A DNA stretch of 64,000 nt from an uncultured Haliscomenobacter sp. (GTDB lineage: Bacteria; Bacteroidota; Bacteroidia; Chitinophagales; Saprospiraceae), in contig CAZSMU010000001.1 in assembly GCA_964607915.1 (NCBI GenBank), positions 8,904-72,903 on the forward strand. The letters are read 5' to 3'. Each line of letters begins with the position of its first letter. The first letter of the stretch is position 1. Positions 2,574-60,189 of the stretch are shown here, one piece after another. The position numbers and the translations under genes were made by a program. The notes under the pieces are model-generated. The model ran no database searches, had not been told where the DNA came from, and saw nothing but the letters and a program-made list of their open reading frames with translations.

Positions 2574-4376
2574 ATGATTCGATTCAACTGGTTTATTGCC
2601 CTGATGCTGTTGGGTACAGCCTTCTGCCAAGCGCAGCGACGCCCCAATTTTGTACTCCTCCTCGCCGACGACCAGAGCTGGAACGGCACTTCGCTGCGGA
2701 TGGACCCGACACGCCCGGATTCCCGCAGCGACTTTCACCTGACCCCGAGGCTGGAGACCCTGGCGAAAACCGGTATGACCTTCAGCCAGGGCTACGCCCC
2801 GGCCCCGAAGTGCTCCCCCTCCCGCATCAGCATCCTGACGGGGAAGACCAATGCGCGGCTCCACTTTACGTTTACGGACAATATCAAAGAAGACAGCACC
2901 CGCTTGCTGGAACCGGTCACGGAGATGGACATTGCCGATTCCCTCACGACTATTGCCGAGTGGCTGAGGCGCCAAGGTTGGGGCTACCTGAGTGCCCACT
3001 ACGGGAAATGGCATATCCGCGGCGGTGGCCCTGCGCAACATGGCTTCGACCGGGGCGACGGAGAAACCGGTAACGAAGACGGCAACCAGGGTGGACTAAT
3101 ACAAGCCAACCCCCGTAAAATTTTCAGCATCACGGATTCGGCCTGCGCTTTTATGGCAGATGCCGCCCGCCTCGGCCGTCCTTTTTACGTGCAAGTATCG
3201 CACCATGCCCCCCGAAAACCTATCGAAACGCGGCAGGCCACGTTGGCGGAATGGTCCAATCCGGCCCTCCATCCCCTTGGTCAACGCCATAAAGACCCTG
3301 AATATGGCGCGATGCTGAGCGATATGGACGTCGGGCTGGGTATCTTGTTCGATAAAATCAAGGCTTTGGGCCTGGATTCCAACACCTATATCATCTATAT
3401 CGCCGACAACGGGGCGGGCGGGAACAACACCCCGCTCAGCGGCGGCAAAGCAGCGTGTAAAGAAGGCGGTATCCGCGTACCACTGGTCATCGCCGGGCCG
3501 GGTATCCCCGCCAATGTATACAACACAACCCCTGCGGTCGGCTACGACCTTTTTCCCACCATAGCCGCCCTCGCCGCGCAGAAAGACCTCCCGCTCCTCC
3601 CCTCCGGCCTCGATGGCAGCAGCCTGTTGCCCTTGCTCAAGTCCGGTAGCGGCAACTTCGCCCGGGGCCAGGAGCTGTTTTTCCACTGCCCCCACTACAA
3701 CGAATCCACCGTGCCGCAGTCGGCTCTGGTAGAAGGGCAGTACAAACTCCTGGCCGACTATGAACTCGGGACCCTGGCCTTGTATGACCTCGGCAAAGAC
3801 ATTGGGGAGACCAAAGACCTGAGTACACTCTATCCGGAAATCGCCCGAAAGCTGACCATTCGTCTGCGCGACTATCTGAAAAGCGTAGAAGCCCGCATGC
3901 CCGGTCTCAACCCGGCTTTCGCGGGATATAAAGGCAGCGCAGGCGACCTCGATGCCGACGGTCTACCCGACGCCTGGGAAATACGGGAATTGCTCACCGA
4001 CCGCTTCATCAGCAGCGATGATCCTGACCAGGATGGACTAAGCAACCTGGAGGAGTATCGGCAACGCAGCGACCCCTACGTTTCCAACCGCCCCACAGCC
4101 GTGGCAGAGGCCATGGCGGAAAGCCCGATACTATTCCGCGTGCGTACGAACCCTTTTTCAAAGCTGTTACAGCTCGACCTGAGTACGGAATGCCAGGGAC
4201 AGCAATGTATATATTCCCTATACGACCTTCAGGGGCGGCTTATTCTTCAGCAGAAAGTATCGTACGCGCCGCAAATCAGTGTCTATACCCCGGCGCTGAT
4301 ACCGGGAACGTACCTGCTTCGCCTTCAACTACAGGAAAGCGGCTCCAGTCAATCGCAAATGGTATTGTCCTATTAA
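2574..4376 (+). CDS. Secreted sulfatase (arylsulfatase family) with Ca-binding repeats and T9SS C-terminal sorting domain
   Basis: Signal peptide MIRFNWFIALMLLGTAFCQA. Sulfatase metal site NFVLLLADDQSWN. Formylglycine motif CSPSR in APKCSPSRISILTGK. DxDxDG-type repeats (DLDADGLPDAWE, DDPDQDGLSNLEEY). Beta-rich tail YSLYDLQGRLILQQ...GTYLLRLQ typical of T9SS CTDs. Confidence 0.9.
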   Translation: MIRFNWFIALMLLGTAFCQAQRRPNFVLLLADDQSWNGTSLRMDPTRPDSRSDFHLTPRLETLAKTGMTFSQGYAPAPKCSPSRISILTGKTNARLHFTFTDNIKEDSTRLLEPVTEMDIADSLTTIAEWLRRQGWGYLSAHYGKWHIRGGGPAQHGFDRGDGETGNEDGNQGGLIQANPRKIFSITDSACAFMADAARLGRPFYVQVSHHAPRKPIETRQATLAEWSNPALHPLGQRHKDPEYGAMLSDMDVGLGILFDKIKALGLDSNTYIIYIADNGAGGNNTPLSGGKAACKEGGIRVPLVIAGPGIPANVYNTTPAVGYDLFPTIAALAAQKDLPLLPSGLDGSSLLPLLKSGSGNFARGQELFFHCPHYNESTVPQSALVEGQYKLLADYELGTLALYDLGKDIGETKDLSTLYPEIARKLTIRLRDYLKSVEARMPGLNPAFAGYKGSAGDLDADGLPDAWEIRELLTDRFISSDDPDQDGLSNLEEYRQRSDPYVSNRPTAVAEAMAESPILFRVRTNPFSKLLQLDLSTECQGQQCIYSLYDLQGRLILQQKVSYAPQISVYTPALIPGTYLLRLQLQESGSSQSQMVLSY

Positions 4377-15100: not shown

Positions 15101-15160
15101 GCTCCAAAGACGAATATAGTACTGTTTTTTCAAAAAAGTTTTTTTGTAAGCCGCGAATAG

Positions 15161-15200: not shown

Positions 15201-15265
15201 AAAATTCCGTTTCTTACTTTTTCGAGCTTTGGTTTTCTTTGTAGTTGTATCATACTTGTTGCCGC

Positions 15266-17290
15266 ATGCGTTTTTTGCCTTTCATCTTTCTATTTTCACC
15301 GGGCTACCTGCTCGCTGTACTCCCGGGGGTAGTCGGAGACACTCTTCTTCAAGATAGCCTGCGAGAGGTGGTCGTGACCGCACAGCGCCGCGAGGCGAAT
15401 CTGTTCGAAACGCCTTCCACGATTGAGATCCTGCGTGCGGATGCCCTGCGCCTGCGCCAGGCGCGCACCGTGCCCGAGGCCCTGGTCGCCACCTCTGGGG
15501 TGTTCAACCAGTCCACCAGCCGATCCGGGTCGCCTTTTCTGCGCGGGCTCACCGGCAACCAGACCCTACTGCTCGTAGATGGCATCCGGCTCAACAACGC
15601 CACGTTCCGTTACGGCCCCAACCAATATCTCAATACCCTGGATCCGTTCTCCCTCAACCGGATTGAAGTACTGAAAGGCGGCGGGTCGGTTGCGTATGGC
15701 TCCGACGCTCTTGGGGGGACGATTCAGGTTTTTTCTGTTGACCCTCGGTTCAGTGACGGCCCATCCCGATGGGGAGGGCGGGCGCTCGGGCAGTTCCAAA
15801 CCCGCGATATGGAACAAAGCGGGCGCTTAGACCTGGCGTATAGCAGTAGCCGTGCCGCGTTCACAGGCGGATTTACCCTGCGGGATTTCGGAGATGTGTA
15901 TGGAGGGAAAAATACCGGCCGCCAAACCCCCTCCGGCTATGGCGAACGCGCCTGGAACGGTAAAGCCCGCTTTCGGCTGGCCAAAAATCATTTCCTCACG
16001 CTTGCCCAGCAGTCGTTCGCTCAGCAAGACCAGCCTGTATATCATAAAATCCAGTTGGAAAATTTCCTGCGCAACCACTTTGCCGAGCAGAAACGCGCCC
16101 TCAGCTATGCCCGATGGCAGCACCAGCCGGAGGGCAGCCGGCATCGCTTCACGGCTACAGCCTCTCTGCAAAACACCCTCGAAGGCCGGGAAAGCCAAAA
16201 GAAAGGCAGTGTCGTTCAGACAATCGAGGAAGACCGGGTGCGCTCCCTGGGGCTGGGCTTTCAATTTGAAAGCGCCCCCGGTGAGTACCTCAGCCTCAGC
16301 AGCGGCGTGGAGGTATATCGCGATCTCGTGCACAGCACACGTAGGGACCAGAATACGACTACGGGGATACACGCCGAGAAAAGAGGGCTATATCCCGATG
16401 GCGCGACCCACCTCAGTGCTGCGGCATACGCGCTCGCTACCTGGGACAAGGGCCGCTGGCAGCTTGCCCCAGGGCTGCGCTACAACTACTTTTCGATCAA
16501 GGTAGCTGATGCAGATATTGGGGAGAGCCATCTGCAACCTTCAGCGTTGGTGGGCAGTATGGCAGCTCTGTATCGATTTTCGCCTTCCGTAAATGGGTTT
16601 GCCCATGTATCCACCGCCTTCCGCGCTCCGAATATTGACGACCTGGGTACACTGGGGATTGTAGATTTCCGCTATGAAGTCCCAACCCAGACCCTGAAGC
16701 CTGAGTCGGCGCTGAATATGGAGCTCGGTCTCCGTGCCCGCTCCGAATGGATGCAAGCTGAGCTCTCTGTGTACCACAACCGCCTGAATGACCTTATCGT
16801 ACGTATCCGGGAAGGAAGCGACTCCATCGCCGGCTATCCGGTATATCGAAAGGAAAATGTGCAAAAAGGATATATTCAGGGGGTAGAAGGCGATTTTCGA
16901 GCTGCGCTGGGGCCTGCTTTTGCGTTTGAAGCTGCCCTTTCCTGGCAATACGGGCAGAATGTTACCCGCAATGAGCCCATGCGCCGCATCCCGCCGCTGT
17001 TTGGCCGGGTAGGGCTACAGTATGCCCGCTCCCGGTTCCGGTGTACGCTGGAGAGTTTGTTTGCCGGTCGGCAGGACCGCCTGGCCGCCGGTGATATCAG
17101 CGATAACCGCATTCCTGCTGGCGGGACTCCAGGCTGGGCCGTGGTCAATATCTATGGGGAATGTACCTGGAAAAAATTGATCCTCCGCGCAGGGCTGTGG
17201 AACTTGTCGGACGAGGATTACCGCTACCACGGCTCCGGCATCAATTCCCCTGGCCGGAGTGCTGTGTTTGGGGTAGAATACGTTTTTTAG
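15266..17290 (+). CDS. TonB-dependent receptor (no N-terminal regulatory domain)
   Basis: Start taken at ATG 15266 (MRFLPFIFLFSPGYLLA). Plug motifs VVVTAQRREANLFETPSTIEIL, LLLVDGIRLNNATFRYGPNQYL and VEVLKGGGSVAYGSDALGGTIQVF. C-terminal ...FGVEYVF. Confidence 0.88.
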   Translation: MRFLPFIFLFSPGYLLAVLPGVVGDTLLQDSLREVVVTAQRREANLFETPSTIEILRADALRLRQARTVPEALVATSGVFNQSTSRSGSPFLRGLTGNQTLLLVDGIRLNNATFRYGPNQYLNTLDPFSLNRIEVLKGGGSVAYGSDALGGTIQVFSVDPRFSDGPSRWGGRALGQFQTRDMEQSGRLDLAYSSSRAAFTGGFTLRDFGDVYGGKNTGRQTPSGYGERAWNGKARFRLAKNHFLTLAQQSFAQQDQPVYHKIQLENFLRNHFAEQKRALSYARWQHQPEGSRHRFTATASLQNTLEGRESQKKGSVVQTIEEDRVRSLGLGFQFESAPGEYLSLSSGVEVYRDLVHSTRRDQNTTTGIHAEKRGLYPDGATHLSAAAYALATWDKGRWQLAPGLRYNYFSIKVADADIGESHLQPSALVGSMAALYRFSPSVNGFAHVSTAFRAPNIDDLGTLGIVDFRYEVPTQTLKPESALNMELGLRARSEWMQAELSVYHNRLNDLIVRIREGSDSIAGYPVYRKENVQKGYIQGVEGDFRAALGPAFAFEAALSWQYGQNVTRNEPMRRIPPLFGRVGLQYARSRFRCTLESLFAGRQDRLAAGDISDNRIPAGGTPGWAVVNIYGECTWKKLILRAGLWNLSDEDYRYHGSGINSPGRSAVFGVEYVF

Positions 17291-17299
17291 CGCAGGCTT
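17280..17299. repeat. Left copy of a perfect 20-bp direct repeat ACGTTTTTTAGCGCAGGCTT flanking the higBA cassette
   Basis: Read directly from the sequence. It contains the TAG stop of the TonB-dependent receptor (17288-17290). An identical 20-mer is at 18073-18092. Confidence 0.95.
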
Positions 17300-17589
17300 T
17301 ACCTATTTATCTCCGGGATGTTGGGCAACTCATCGGCTAGGGCATTTACGGATTCCTCTAGGTCAAAGTCATCTTGAAGCCCCAGCCAAAATTTTGGCGA
17401 GGTACCAAAATATTTGCTCAGTCTCAGCGCTGTATCTGCAGTGATCCTCCTTTTCTGTTTTATGATTTCACTGACCCTCGTTTGGGGGATTCTGAGGTCT
17501 TTCGCCAGTTTGTGTTGGCTGATTCCCATTGGAATCAGGAACTCTTCCAGCAACACTTCCCCCGGGTGTACGTTGGACAATTTTTCCAT
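17299..17589 (-). CDS. higA: HigA-family antitoxin (XRE-type HTH)
   Basis: 96 aa. HPGEVLLEEFLIPMGISQHKLAKDLRIPQTRVSEIIKQKRRITADTALRLSKYFGTSPKFWLGLQ is the classic HigA/VapI HTH pattern. It lies downstream of a HigB-like gene. Confidence 0.9.
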   Translation of the reverse strand: MEKLSNVHPGEVLLEEFLIPMGISQHKLAKDLRIPQTRVSEIIKQKRRITADTALRLSKYFGTSPKFWLGLQDDFDLEESVNALADELPNIPEINR

Positions 17590-17948
17590 CTTTCTGTTCT
17601 TTTCAAGAGATCATTTTGGGGCCAAAGAGTCTTCTTGACTCCGAGGGGATTCCACCTCGCAACAAGCCTAATGGTAGTTGTTATTTGAACCCTGTATGCG
17701 TCATTTTCGGACCAAATAAAAACAATTCTCCACTGGTTATTGATTCGGATACTCCAGTAATTTTCCAGGTCTCCTTTCAATTTCTCCAATCTGTTGCCCG
17801 GCGGTACTCTGAGATCGCTGATGTCTTTAGCGCTATTGATCATTCTGAGTTTTCTTCTGGCAGTAGGCTGGATATCCTTTGGTAATTTCTTGGTATAGGC
17901 TCCTTCCCAAATATCTTTTGTCTCTTTACTACCGAAACTCTTTATCAT
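17535..17948 (-). CDS. higB: HigB-family (RelE/ParE superfamily) toxin with a frameshifted 3' end; canonical gene would be 17668-17948
   Basis: MIKSF...LEKLKGDLENYWSIRINNQWRIVFIWSENDAYRVQI matches the ~92-aa HigB killer-protein family. After aa ~89 the called frame runs on for 44 more codons. The neighbouring frame reads N-Y-H-stop (TAG at 17668-17670), which is the normal family ending. Confidence 0.8.
   Translation of the reverse strand: MIKSFGSKETKDIWEGAYTKKLPKDIQPTARRKLRMINSAKDISDLRVPPGNRLEKLKGDLENYWSIRINNQWRIVFIWSENDAYRVQITTTIRLVARWNPLGVKKTLWPQNDLLKRTERWKNCPTYTRGKCCWKSS
17618..17667 (-). repeat. Partial copy of the CTTGTTGCGAGGGG-type repeat between higB and higA
   Basis: The minus strand reads GCTTGTTGCGAGGTGGAATCCCCTCGGAGTCAAGAAGACTCTTTGGCCCC, starting at the base after the canonical higB TAG. 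No matching right-hand TIR. Confidence 0.7.
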
Positions 17949-17960
17949 ACCAACGCTTCA

Positions 17961-17971
17961 CGTTATTAACG
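17961..17971. promoter_or_regulatory. 11-bp palindrome CGTTATTAACG upstream of higB (possible HigA operator)
   Basis: A 5+1+5 palindrome ending 12 nt upstream of the higB ATG (17948). Type II TA operons are usually autoregulated at palindromes. Short, so it could be chance. Confidence 0.25.
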
Positions 17972-18005
17972 AAAAGCATGGATGATTAGTTCGTTTTTTC
18001 AATAT

Positions 18006-18069
18006 ACTTGTTGCGAGGGGGCAGAAAATGATCCTTTGGAGCTCTGGATGATTCCATCTCGCAACGAGT
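18006..18069. repeat. Short-form CTTGTTGCGAGGGG-type palindromic repeat (64 bp)
   Basis: ACTTGTTGCGAGGGGG...CCATCTCGCAACGAGT. It ends 3 nt before the right 20-bp direct repeat and 10 nt from the SDR stop codon. Confidence 0.8.
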
Positions 18070-18072
18070 CCA

Positions 18073-18092
18073 ACGTTTTTTAGCGCAGGCTT
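18073..18092. repeat. Right copy of the perfect 20-bp direct repeat ACGTTTTTTAGCGCAGGCTT
   Basis: Identical to 17280-17299. It contains the TAA stop (18080-18082) and the last four codons (SSLR) of the SDR gene. Confidence 0.95.
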
Positions 18093-18778
18093 GACAAGCC
18101 ACCATCTACGCCGATAACCTGGCCTGTGATCCAACCGGATAAGTCTGAGAGCAGGAACTGTGTGAGGGCAGCCATATCGTCCGGCATACCGATTCGGTTG
18201 AGGGGGTGGCGTTTGGCGGAGGCTTCGATTTTTTCGGGGGTATTCAGGAGGCCCTGTGCCAATGGAGTCTGGGTGAGGGAGGGAGCTATCGCATTGACCC
18301 GGATTTGCTGTGCAGCCAATTCGGCGGCCAGGGAGCGGGTTAGGCCCTCGACGCCGCCTTTAGCTGCCGCGATGGAACTGTGAAAAGCCATCCCTGTTTT
18401 CACAGCTACTGTACTGAAGAGTACTACGCTTGCACCATTGGCACGCTTGAGGCGCGGGAGTACTACCTGGACCAAGCGCACCGCCCCGAGGACGTTTTGC
18501 TTGAAGTCGGCGAGGAAATCGTCTTCACTGAGGCGGTTCACTGTTTTCAGAGTGATGCTGCCCGGGCAATATACCAGCCCATGAAGGGTGTCGGGCAGTG
18601 CTTGCAGGCCGTCGAGAGGGTCGTTGACCACATCCATGCTGAAATGGGTGGTATTCAGAGCCTGTAACTCGGCGCTGAGGGTGCGCGACAGGGTGTACAG
18701 GGTATGATCGGGCGCACACAGTTGCGCGAGGCGCAAACCGATGCCCTTACTGGCTCCGGCGATGAGTATATTTTTCAT
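18080..18778 (-). CDS. Short-chain dehydrogenase/reductase (SDR) family protein, atypical active site
   Basis: N-terminal Rossmann motif ILIAGASKGIG and typical SDR length of 232 aa. RVNAIAPSL and C-terminal ITGQVIGVDGG. The usual YxxxK is replaced by FHSSIAAAK. Confidence 0.8.
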   Translation of the reverse strand: MKNILIAGASKGIGLRLAQLCAPDHTLYTLSRTLSAELQALNTTHFSMDVVNDPLDGLQALPDTLHGLVYCPGSITLKTVNRLSEDDFLADFKQNVLGAVRLVQVVLPRLKRANGASVVLFSTVAVKTGMAFHSSIAAAKGGVEGLTRSLAAELAAQQIRVNAIAPSLTQTPLAQGLLNTPEKIEASAKRHPLNRIGMPDDMAALTQFLLSDLSGWITGQVIGVDGGLSSLR

Positions 18779-28875: not shown

Positions 28876-28903
28876 GTGTGCTGTACATATATATCCTGGA
28901 TAT

Positions 28904-29061
28904 ACTTGTTGCGAGGGGTCAGCGAGATGGGAAAAAAGAGTCATTTTCTTTCCACGCGAAGGCTTTTTGTGGGAGTATAGCCCGGCTATATGACCACGAA
29001 AAGGCGCAGGGTGGGAAGAAAGGGGCCTTTTTGACCCTTGATGATCCCCCTCGCAACAAGT
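28904..29061. repeat. Long-form (158 bp) CTTGTTGCGAGGGG-type palindromic repeat
   Basis: Perfect 15-nt TIRs ACTTGTTGCGAGGGG / CCCCTCGCAACAAGT. Nested imperfect palindrome centred on TATAGCCCGGCTATA. It ends 6 nt after the pyrophosphatase stop codon. Confidence 0.9.
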
Positions 29062-29067
29062 CTACTA

Positions 29068-40664: not shown

Positions 40665-40779
40665 GCCGTGAAGATCTGTTATTTCCAACCCTCTAAACGG
40701 ATGCCCACACCGGGCAGTTTAGGAATCAGAATGCAAAGATAGTAAAAAAACCCTTTCTTCCCTAACTATGAATTACTGA

Positions 40780-40937
40780 ACTTGTTGCGCGGGGTCGGTG
40801 GGGAAGGGAAAAAGAGTCGTTTTTTGTCCATACGAAGGCTTTTGAGAGAGTATAGCCTCGCTGTATGACCGAAAGAAAGGCACGGCAGGGCGAAAAAGGG
40901 CCTTTTTGAACCCTCGCTGACCCCCCGCGCAATGAGC
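40780..40937. repeat. Long-form (158 bp) copy of the repeat family
   Basis: It aligns end to end with 28904-29061 at the same length. TIRs are ACTTGTTGCGCGGGG / CCCCGCGCAATGAGC, with a compensatory A>C / T>G pair. Confidence 0.85.
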
Positions 40938-41078
40938 CTATCTTCAAAATGTCCAATAGAATCAGCCTGATACGGCCAACAGGTTTTGGGCATGGTACGG
41001 TTTTTTTATGTACTTTTGCGCCTGTTTTTAGCCAGCGGGTGAGCCGGCCTTATTTCAGCACTTAGACACACCATCGTA

Positions 41079-60068: not shown

Positions 60069-60097
60069 GGCAGTATTTTTGGTGTGTGGATGAATAG

Positions 60098-60171
60098 ACT
60101 TGTTGCGAGGGGGATTATCGCGGGGTCAAAAAGGCTCTTTTTTCCCACCTCGCTGACCCCTCGCAACAAGT
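60098..60171. repeat. Short-form (74 bp) CTTGTTGCGAGGGG-type repeat, best-preserved copy
   Basis: Perfect 15/15 TIR: ACTTGTTGCGAGGGG...GGGGTCAAAAAGGCTCTTTTTTCCCACCTCGCTGA...CCCCTCGCAACAAGT. It lies 18 nt after the stop codon at 60190. Confidence 0.92.
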
Positions 60172-60189
60172 CGAATGTCTATGAAAAGT

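Follow-up and report, generated by a model that had tools for sequence, protein, structure and literature searches.

A small higBA toxin-antitoxin (TA) cassette has inserted into the overlapping ends of two convergent genes in an uncultured Haliscomenobacter sp., duplicating 20 bp of target DNA, and this is proven by uninterrupted versions of the same site in related species and within the species itself. The cassette was analyzed in a window of 64,000 nucleotides (nt), which corresponds to C1:8904-72903 of a 4.0-Mb, 297-contig assembly (G000) with a genome GC content of 0.55. It is flanked by a direct repeat, ACGTTTTTTAGCGCAGGCTT, at 17280-17299 and 18073-18092 with zero mismatches between the copies, and the 773 bp between them contain higA, higB and two copies of a miniature inverted-repeat transposable element (MITE), and nothing else. 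The original prediction, made from the sequence of the window alone, had already identified the repeat together with the receptor and oxidoreductase gene ends that it holds, and all of these details, including coordinates and stop codons, were correct, as was the content of the insert, on which profile matches and open reading frames (ORFs) agree. It had also foreseen an empty site in which the two genes would overlap by 4 nt, and precisely this arrangement was recovered from the closest relative (G006) and from contigs of the same species in three metagenome runs (X11, X14 and X4).

The left copy of the repeat (17280-17299) contains the TAG stop codon of a TonB-dependent receptor gene (15245-17290, plus strand; an ORF with matches to Pfam Plug and TonB_dep_Rec_b-barrel and the C-terminus ...GVEYVF*), of which the final 11 nt (AC GTT TTT TAG) lie inside the repeat, while the last base of this copy, the T at 17299, doubles as part of the higA stop codon (TTA, 17299-17301). 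The right copy (18073-18092) contains the TAA stop and the final codons of an oxidoreductase gene of the short-chain dehydrogenase/reductase (SDR) family (18080-18778, minus strand; an ORF matching Pfam adh_short_C2, with the C-terminus ...GGLSSLR*), which has its final 13 nt within the repeat. The repeat is exactly 20 bp long, since the bases flanking copy 1 and copy 2 differ. It is not a common genomic repeat, which would have spoken against a target duplication: no further match with up to three mismatches occurs in the window, where 100 shuffles gave an expectation of 0, and the copy number across the whole 4.0-Mb assembly is exactly two. The composition of the insert is foreign, as its GC content is 0.40-0.46 compared with 0.55-0.63 in the flanks (0.44 and 0.58 in a second estimate), and the AT-richness first noticed by eye is thus real.

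The ancestral state of the site is evident from related genomes. When the receptor protein was searched against 40 relatives, orthologues were found in four genomes of the genus. In G006, which belongs to the same genus and has a receptor orthologue of 86% amino acid (aa) identity, the receptor gene ends at position 1498 of the locus (L002) and the SDR gene at 1501, so that they overlap by 4 nt with no cassette between them, and the junction reads GTAGAATACGCTTTTTAGCGGAGGCTCGACAACCC, with three substitutions within the 20-mer. The same gene pair converges with a 3-nt gap in G002, where it is present in two copies, and in G005, with neither higBA nor any trace of the repeat. The gene ends themselves are conserved, the C-terminal Phe of the receptor in G006, G002 and G005, and the SDR C-terminus GGLSSLR in G006, G005 and one of the two G002 copies, the other G002 copy having GGLSALR. 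Because G006, G002 and G005 have the gene pair without the cassette, higBA was inserted in the line that led to this species and was not ancestral at the site. At the three positions where G006 differs, the two copies of the repeat have the allele of this species, and no filled site was found in another species among 60 relatives. The second receptor copy of G002 (L012/L020, G002:C2:508217-510078) is broken, with a split match and two in-frame TGA codons, next to intact SDR and DUF6544 neighbors.

Both states of the site also occur within the species. At least 20 public metagenome runs contain the stretch; they come from at least 11 studies, which sampled soil, freshwater and drinking water. 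The contigs of 16 of these runs were compared over 16800-18600. The filled form is present in all 16 runs, and three of them, X11, X14 and X4, each from a different study, contain the empty junction in addition. The contigs with the empty allele read GGGGTAGAAT, then a single 20-mer, then GACAAGCCAC, and elsewhere are 100% identical to the window; they bear the GACAAGCCAC of this species and not the GACAACCCAC of G006, and each empty junction is backed by ten 31-mers that could not be derived from the filled form. Hence empty and filled alleles coexist within the species. Conversely, where a HigA of at least 99% identity was found, all 12 contigs that were fetched place the cassette between the same SDR and receptor genes, a location on which at least 12 independent assemblies agree, and in each of the nine that span both junctions the two 20-mers are intact. 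Circular or tandem junctions were not seen in the contigs of the 16 runs, with the caveat that contigs drop rare variants. The RNA runs were considered as evidence of expression and set aside as unusable, since their contigs reach 111 kb at flat depth and they are therefore DNA-dominated or uninformative.

By itself the cassette does not make up a mobile element. It is single-copy in the genome and has no terminal inverted repeats, as the insert begins TACCTATTT... and ends ...GCAACGAGTCCA, and its left end, TACCTATTTATCTCC, is unrelated to the reverse complement of its right end, TGGACTCGTTGCGAG. As the original prediction had stated, neither an integrase nor a transposase is encoded in the insert or in the adjoining genes, a search for recombinases and transposases that did not extend to serine recombinases. 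The genome has three matches to PF00589 (tyrosine recombinase) and three to PF01609 (DDE_Tnp_1), and none of them is on contig C1. The genes around the cassette (pirin-like, GDSL lipase, receptor, SDR, DUF6544, OmpH) are ordinary. The description of the cassette as a mobile module is therefore not sustained: it is present once, occupies the same site in all public near-identical copies and lacks terminal inverted repeats, and it is not self-mobile and is inherited vertically.

The cassette encodes a HigA antitoxin and a HigB toxin on the minus strand in the order known from HigBA operons, toxin first, with higB starting at 17948 and higA at 17589, and the order is the same in the homologues of two other genomes, G051 and G031. 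HigA (17299-17589, 96 aa, HTH-XRE) matches the equivalog model TIGR02607 antidote_HigA with 110.6 bits (cut-off 47.7) as well as Pfam HTH_3, while the higB ORF as read in the window (17535-17948, 137 aa) matches PF05015 HigB-like_toxin with an E value of 5.3e-20 and 72 bits (cut-off 27). The short region upstream of higB (17949-18003, minus strand) contains a near-palindrome, ACGTTATTAACG, and a homologous sequence, AACGTTAGTAACGTT, sits upstream of higB in G031; from these sequences the near-palindrome is likely to be the HigA operator and promoter. A scan for sigma-70 promoters gave no match, as expected for a Bacteroidota host, and a search of Rfam over positions 10000-35000 of the window, with E values up to 0.1, gave none either. 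The closest HigA proteins outside this species are 84-86% identical and come from Saprospiraceae metagenome-assembled genomes, and a search for a donor found no cassette outside this species with a HigA above 86% identity. Orphan higA genes of 76-79% DNA identity that lack higB are present in G003 (L023, G003:C213, 1458-1745) and G005 (L024, G005:C12, 1465-3266), and in the latter the position of higB is occupied by ORF fragments that resemble, by eye only, a transposase of the IS4/IS1634 type.

The two repeat-family copies in the insert belong to an ordinary MITE family that makes a 3-bp target duplication of the sequence AWT. The terminal repeats of the family read AGACTTGTTGCGAGGGG...CCCCTCGCAACAAGTCT. 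Their core is matched about 700 times in the genome, equivalent to about 350 copies, which fall into two size classes (about 65-70 bp and about 155 bp); going by first-look candidate counts, abundance of the family is confined to G000 and G006. It has no match in Rfam. Among 104 copies with good ends the 3-nt flanks are identical in 43, nearly all of them AAT/AAT or ATT/ATT, compared with a mean of 14 and a maximum of 22 for shuffled flank pairs, and four identical flanking bases were found in none of the 104. As the family duplicates only 3 bp, it cannot explain the 20-bp repeat, and the MITE was discarded as its source on the basis of these flanks. In addition to the copy at 18004-18071, MITE copies in the window were noted at 15156, 19827, 20542, 28900-29066, 31331, 40776-40941, 46077 and 60094-60176. 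Many copies have paired changes in their two arms, for example TTGTGGCGAGG...CCTCGCCACAA and TTGTTGCGCGG...CCGCGCAACAA, which means that the arms do not evolve independently. A reading of the palindromes as integron attC sites was also rejected, because GTTGCGAG comes first and CTCGCAAC last, whereas an attC site has its arms in the reverse order, R''(RYYYAAC)...R'(GTTRRRY), and because of the copy number and the 3-bp AWT duplications of the MITE; for integrases the genome was searched with the generic PF00589 model, which gave the three matches.

Within the cassette, MITE_L (17590-17669, repeat family D8) occupies the spacer between higB and higA; of its two terminal repeats, one is good (CCACCTCGCAACAAGCCT) and the other degenerate. 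Its end provides the AG of the higB TAG stop codon; in the G051 homologue the spacer is 8 nt and has no MITE. MITE_R (18004-18071, 68 bp) forms the right border of the cassette and is flanked by AAT (18001-18003) and AAC (18072-18074), the AC of the latter being the first two nt of repeat copy 2. These flanks, which belong to MITE_R itself and include two nt of the repeat, are most simply explained by a later insertion at the junction, and MITE_R thus probably arrived after the cassette. In X4 and L049 an additional MITE end (..CCCCTCGCAACAAGTCT) lies immediately to the left of MITE_R, at window position 18001, and points to a polymorphic and recent MITE insertion beside an existing copy. The family is still active, and tandem MITE-to-MITE arrangements are common in the genome. 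An 8-nt similarity, CGTTTTTT, between the right end of the insert, with MITE_R removed, and the start of the repeat was not used as support for any mechanism. It is unlike microhomology joining, because both copies are kept side by side, and T-runs are common.

The toxin gene has fared differently from the antitoxin gene. The Asp-Tyr-His C-terminus is catalytic in Proteus HigB. In the window, a 1-nt deletion after 17678 turns ...VQITDYH* into ...VQITTTIRL..., so that Asp-Tyr-His is lost and the frame continues across the MITE as far as higA; in its native form the gene would stop at 17668, and the PF05015 match ends at profile position 83 of 91. The window allele accordingly lacks the intact toxin C-terminus expected of HigBA, while in 12 runs the contigs read one more C after 17678 and with it ...VQITDYH. 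The frameshift is a real allele, since it is common to the window, X4 and L048, all with the 137-aa ORF. The intact HigB of 93 aa (...VQITDYH*) is found in X11 and L049. Most samples have a 112-aa stop-loss form in which the change A>G at 17670 converts TAG to CAG and DYH is followed by 19 MITE-encoded residues, and L046 combines this stop loss with a Tyr-to-Cys change (...DCH plus 19 residues). In X15, X12 and X14 the full form is accompanied by a variant fused from 17664 to 18067 by recombination of one MITE copy with the other; it lacks higB and leaves an orphan higA. L049 had been considered as another higB deletion variant, and this was dismissed as the gap is a run of N in a scaffold. 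The higA gene is intact in all samples. Judged from these alleles, the toxin gene appears to be decaying by several independent lesions while the antitoxin is kept, which would be the expected decay of a chromosomal TA pair. Hence recently acquired, as the cassette had first been described, is an overstatement, given that two MITE copies and several independent toxin lesions have been gained since its arrival.

Repeat-flanked cassettes recur in the same genome. The assembly was scanned for exact direct repeats of at least 16 bp that are 200-6000 bp apart, with MITE-made and gene-internal repeats set aside, and this left three loci with an AT-richer interior: higBA, an MNT-HEPN pair and an AAA_15 ATPase gene. 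The MITE-made repeats that were set aside bracket several further AT-richer stretches. A hipBA locus was added for its long unique repeat, its interior being no AT-richer than its partly masked flanks. Of the two things that the original prediction proposed to look for in the genome, a second higBA cassette was not found, while three other cassettes with long flanking repeats were. The MNT (NTP_transf_2) and HEPN pair (G000:C70:18078-18964, L058) has an imperfect repeat about 43 bp long, in which an exact core of 26 bp includes a hairpin, and G006 has the same cassette at the same site with a repeat that consists of a MITE plus 22 nt and is identical at 62 of 63 positions. The hipBA locus (G000:C84:13934-15770, L059) encodes an HTH protein and HipA, the N- and C-terminal domains of which are on separate overlapping ORFs, between imperfect repeats that are about 43 bp long and share an exact core of 24 bp; a MITE or MITE-like end is found immediately to the left of each repeat copy, and one of these ends abuts the right copy. 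A hipBA homologue of 76% DNA identity is present on a different contig in G006. The third cassette (G000:C190:1-2545, L060) holds an AAA_15/AAA_21 ATPase gene (567 aa, GC 0.41) between two copies of a stretch of at least 97 bp, a lower bound as the contig begins inside the repeat, and this repeat duplicates part of the 5' region of an adjoining DUF7149/DUF7814/MmeI-type (MmeI/Eco57I-like) gene. MITE or MITE-like sequence adjoins the right-hand repeat in three of the cassettes.

Beyond this genome, nine loci with higB/higA homologues were examined in other genomes, and one of them, in G031 from another family of the same order, is bracketed by a repeat that matches at 18 of 19 positions. This locus (L042, G031:C37, 1128-1951) has an intact higBA, with a HigB of 94 aa ending in IIDYHN and a HigA of 99 aa, and the repeat, GA(A/G)AAAACTATAATACAAG, occurs in copies 777 bp apart; no empty site was obtained from the relatives of G031, among which no close one is available. 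A further higBA homologue, in G010 (L039, G010:C53), lies between arrays of 8-nt units, GTGTTGAT.../...CAACACGA, at 758-853 and 2939-3016, about 2.1 kb apart, which may be another kind of flanking repeat element. Together the repeat-flanked loci suggest that this mode of insertion is recurrent for such cassettes in the group.

The insertion is of a kind documented in Helicobacter, Haemophilus and Neisseria, among others, with restriction-modification genes as the inserted DNA (Nobusato et al. 2000, Gene 259:99; Furuta, Abe and Kobayashi 2010, PMC2853133); there, long and unique target duplications overlap the 3' ends of genes and no other mobile element is present (PMC2853133). The mechanism had been called unclear in the original prediction, and this stands to the extent that the manner of joining can only be deduced, while the event itself is not without precedent. 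As in the restriction-modification cases, a compact addiction unit of deviant GC content is present in one genome and absent from a relative, the repeat is single at the empty site, unique in the genome and overlaps 3' gene ends, and there is no transposase, integrase or inverted repeat. The differences are that the cargo is a type II TA pair and that the duplication of 20 bp is below the 30-bp working threshold of Furuta et al., whose cases range from 46 to about 420 bp (PMC2853133). In addition, HigB cuts mRNA, so that the link to double-strand breakage by the restriction enzyme, which was proposed for the restriction-modification cases, cannot apply. Hence the locus adds a TA cargo and a short repeat to a known kind of insertion.

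Resemblances to other systems are less complete. Sedentary chromosomal integrons of Vibrio hold higBA and other TA cassettes, often in reverse orientation. Like them, the present cassette bears a promoter, is shorter than 1 kb and is bordered by a palindromic repeat element, but it has no attC site and is not part of a cassette array, and integron recombination does not duplicate 20 bp. Members of the IS1634 group of insertion sequences (IS) make target duplications of tens to hundreds of bp, and 20 bp is within the 19-26-bp range of IS1630 (PMC2853133), but the higBA cassette has neither terminal inverted repeats nor a transposase, is single-copy and is always at one site. Integrase-borne islands with attachment (att) repeats likewise regenerate the end of the target gene and occur as coexisting empty and filled alleles; what sets the higBA cassette apart is the absence of an integrase, its length of only 773 bp, a repeat that is unique to the site and the lack of any circular junction seen. 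Work by Mine et al. in 2009 is said to have found that the toxin of the chromosomal ccdO157 pair of Escherichia coli is repeatedly inactivated in natural isolates while the antitoxin is retained. That pair likewise resides in a short junction between housekeeping genes; it differs in TA family and host, and in the present case the lesions include a MITE-mediated deletion and a MITE-derived stop codon.

These data are best fitted by a single insertion with long target duplication at the receptor/SDR overlap, by illegitimate recombination, followed by MITE insertions and toxin decay, and this is considered the probable course of events. A foreign higBA operon of about 620 bp, comprising a promoter, a HigB mRNA interferase of the RelE type and a HigA antitoxin with an HTH domain, entered the chromosome once, landing where the convergent receptor and SDR genes end with an overlap of 4 nt. 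The two joints between insert and chromosome would have been 20 bp apart on the target, and repair synthesis would have copied these 20 bp to both sides, the joining being illegitimate recombination with little or no microhomology and without a transposase or site-specific recombinase. Selection would then have removed events that truncate the receptor or the SDR gene. With a duplication of less than 4 bp, an insertion here would have cut short either the receptor or the SDR gene, which is why only a duplicating event would have survived, and the suggestion made at the outset, that the duplication was retained because neither gene end can be lost, agrees with the data. Later, MITE copies would have landed at two places, the stop codon of higB and the right border, and the 20-bp repeats would permit precise loss of the cassette.

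Several observations weigh against this account. A MITE end abuts the right repeat at higBA, a MITE or MITE-like end does so at hipBA, and MITE-like sequence lies beside the MNT-HEPN repeats, so that MITE termini could have taken part in the insertion event and not be later arrivals. The duplication is shorter than the 30 bp that Furuta et al. used to separate the class from site-specific recombination, and it falls within the 19-26 bp cited for the Mycoplasma transposon IS1630 (PMC2853133). The nearest HigA outside the species is only 86% identical, which leaves no donor for reading the junctions. Finally, the empty alleles may have arisen by excision via the 20-bp repeats or may be retained ancestral alleles, two origins that contigs cannot distinguish.

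A more far-reaching reading, which is unlikely, is that insertion with long target duplication is a recurrent and dedicated route for TA and defense cassettes into Saprospiraceae, by machinery still to be found, with the repeats perhaps acting as excision sites and so producing the filled/empty polymorphism. It draws on the four cassettes of this genome with unique target repeats of 20 to 97 bp or more, on the unrelated higBA of another family with its 19-nt repeat at nearly equal spacing, and on the MITE or MITE-like sequence beside the right-hand repeat of three cassettes. A Campbell-type or homologous acquisition, in which the cassette was received already seated at this junction, from the DNA of a close relative or from an excised circle, is unlikely. 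It would account for empty and filled alleles in nearly identical backgrounds, and short-homology recombination is active at the locus, as the deletion of higB between MITEs in three samples shows. The first-look counts find the MITEs of the cassette in abundance in G000 and G006 alone, so a donor that had them already would have been a close relative, but none of the 60 relatives is another filled species, the repeats match this species' own allele, and a primary insertion duplicating 20 bp would still be needed elsewhere. The proposal that higBA is ancestral at the site and was precisely deleted in relatives is very improbable indeed. Precise loss via the 20-bp repeats is plausible and empty alleles do occur within the species, but three other species of the genus lack higBA, G002 and G005 have a 3-nt junction without a trace of the repeat, the composition of the insert is foreign, and the two repeats show no difference in any sample, even though 3 of the 20 positions differ between the species.

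Two enzymatic routes remain to be weighed against illegitimate recombination. Integrative elements typically regenerate the 3' end of their target gene and leave direct repeats of 15-30 bp. The 20-mers could by analogy be attL and attR, if a circular higBA whose 20-bp att core was identical to the receptor/SDR junction had been inserted with the help of a tyrosine or serine recombinase supplied in trans; a repeat within the att range and under the cut-off of Furuta et al., and populations with both filled and empty alleles, as expected of a reversible reaction, would agree with this. It is nonetheless decidedly unlikely, because there is no recombinase in or near the insert and the three tyrosine recombinases of the genome are on other contigs, no second cassette uses the 20-mer, the other repeat-flanked cassettes each have a different repeat, and loose ends of a circular junction are absent from the contigs of the 16 runs. 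Moreover, a 20-mer that is unique to the site and has this species' own allele at the three positions that diverge in G006 is as expected of a copied target and not of an imported att site. Insertion by a transposase with a long duplication, which would use the border MITE end together with a cryptic end at the higA stop, in a one-ended or surrogate-end event or one of the IS1630/IS1634 type, is just as hard to credit. Its attractions are that MITE_R reaches with its outer end to within 2 nt of repeat copy 2, that a MITE-like end abuts the right repeat of hipBA and a full MITE that of MNT-HEPN in G006, that the duplications of IS1630 are 19-26 bp (PMC2853133), and that the orphan higA of G005 lies beside apparent, by eye, IS4/IS1634-type transposase fragments. 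Against it are the 3-bp AWT duplications of the MITE family (43 of 104 against 14 expected, and never 4 nt), the AAT/AAC flanks of MITE_R itself, which fit a later insertion, a left end without an inverted repeat, the single copy of the cassette and the absence of a transposase from the contig. Since the MITE is active and often lands beside other MITE ends, its proximity to the repeat is not surprising.

How small addiction and defense modules without mobility genes enter chromosomes is still unexplained, and the mechanism of such insertions has never been shown since they were described in 2000. The higBA locus provides a clean natural case, in which the 4-nt overlap of the two genes makes the need for a duplication obvious. 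With filled and empty alleles that coexist and three further repeat-flanked cassettes in the same genome, the question comes within reach of population genomics and plasmid assays. In addition, the locus illustrates the expected fate of a chromosomal TA pair in the wild, where the antitoxin persists and the toxin appears to have been lost by several independent routes, one of them recombination between two MITEs.

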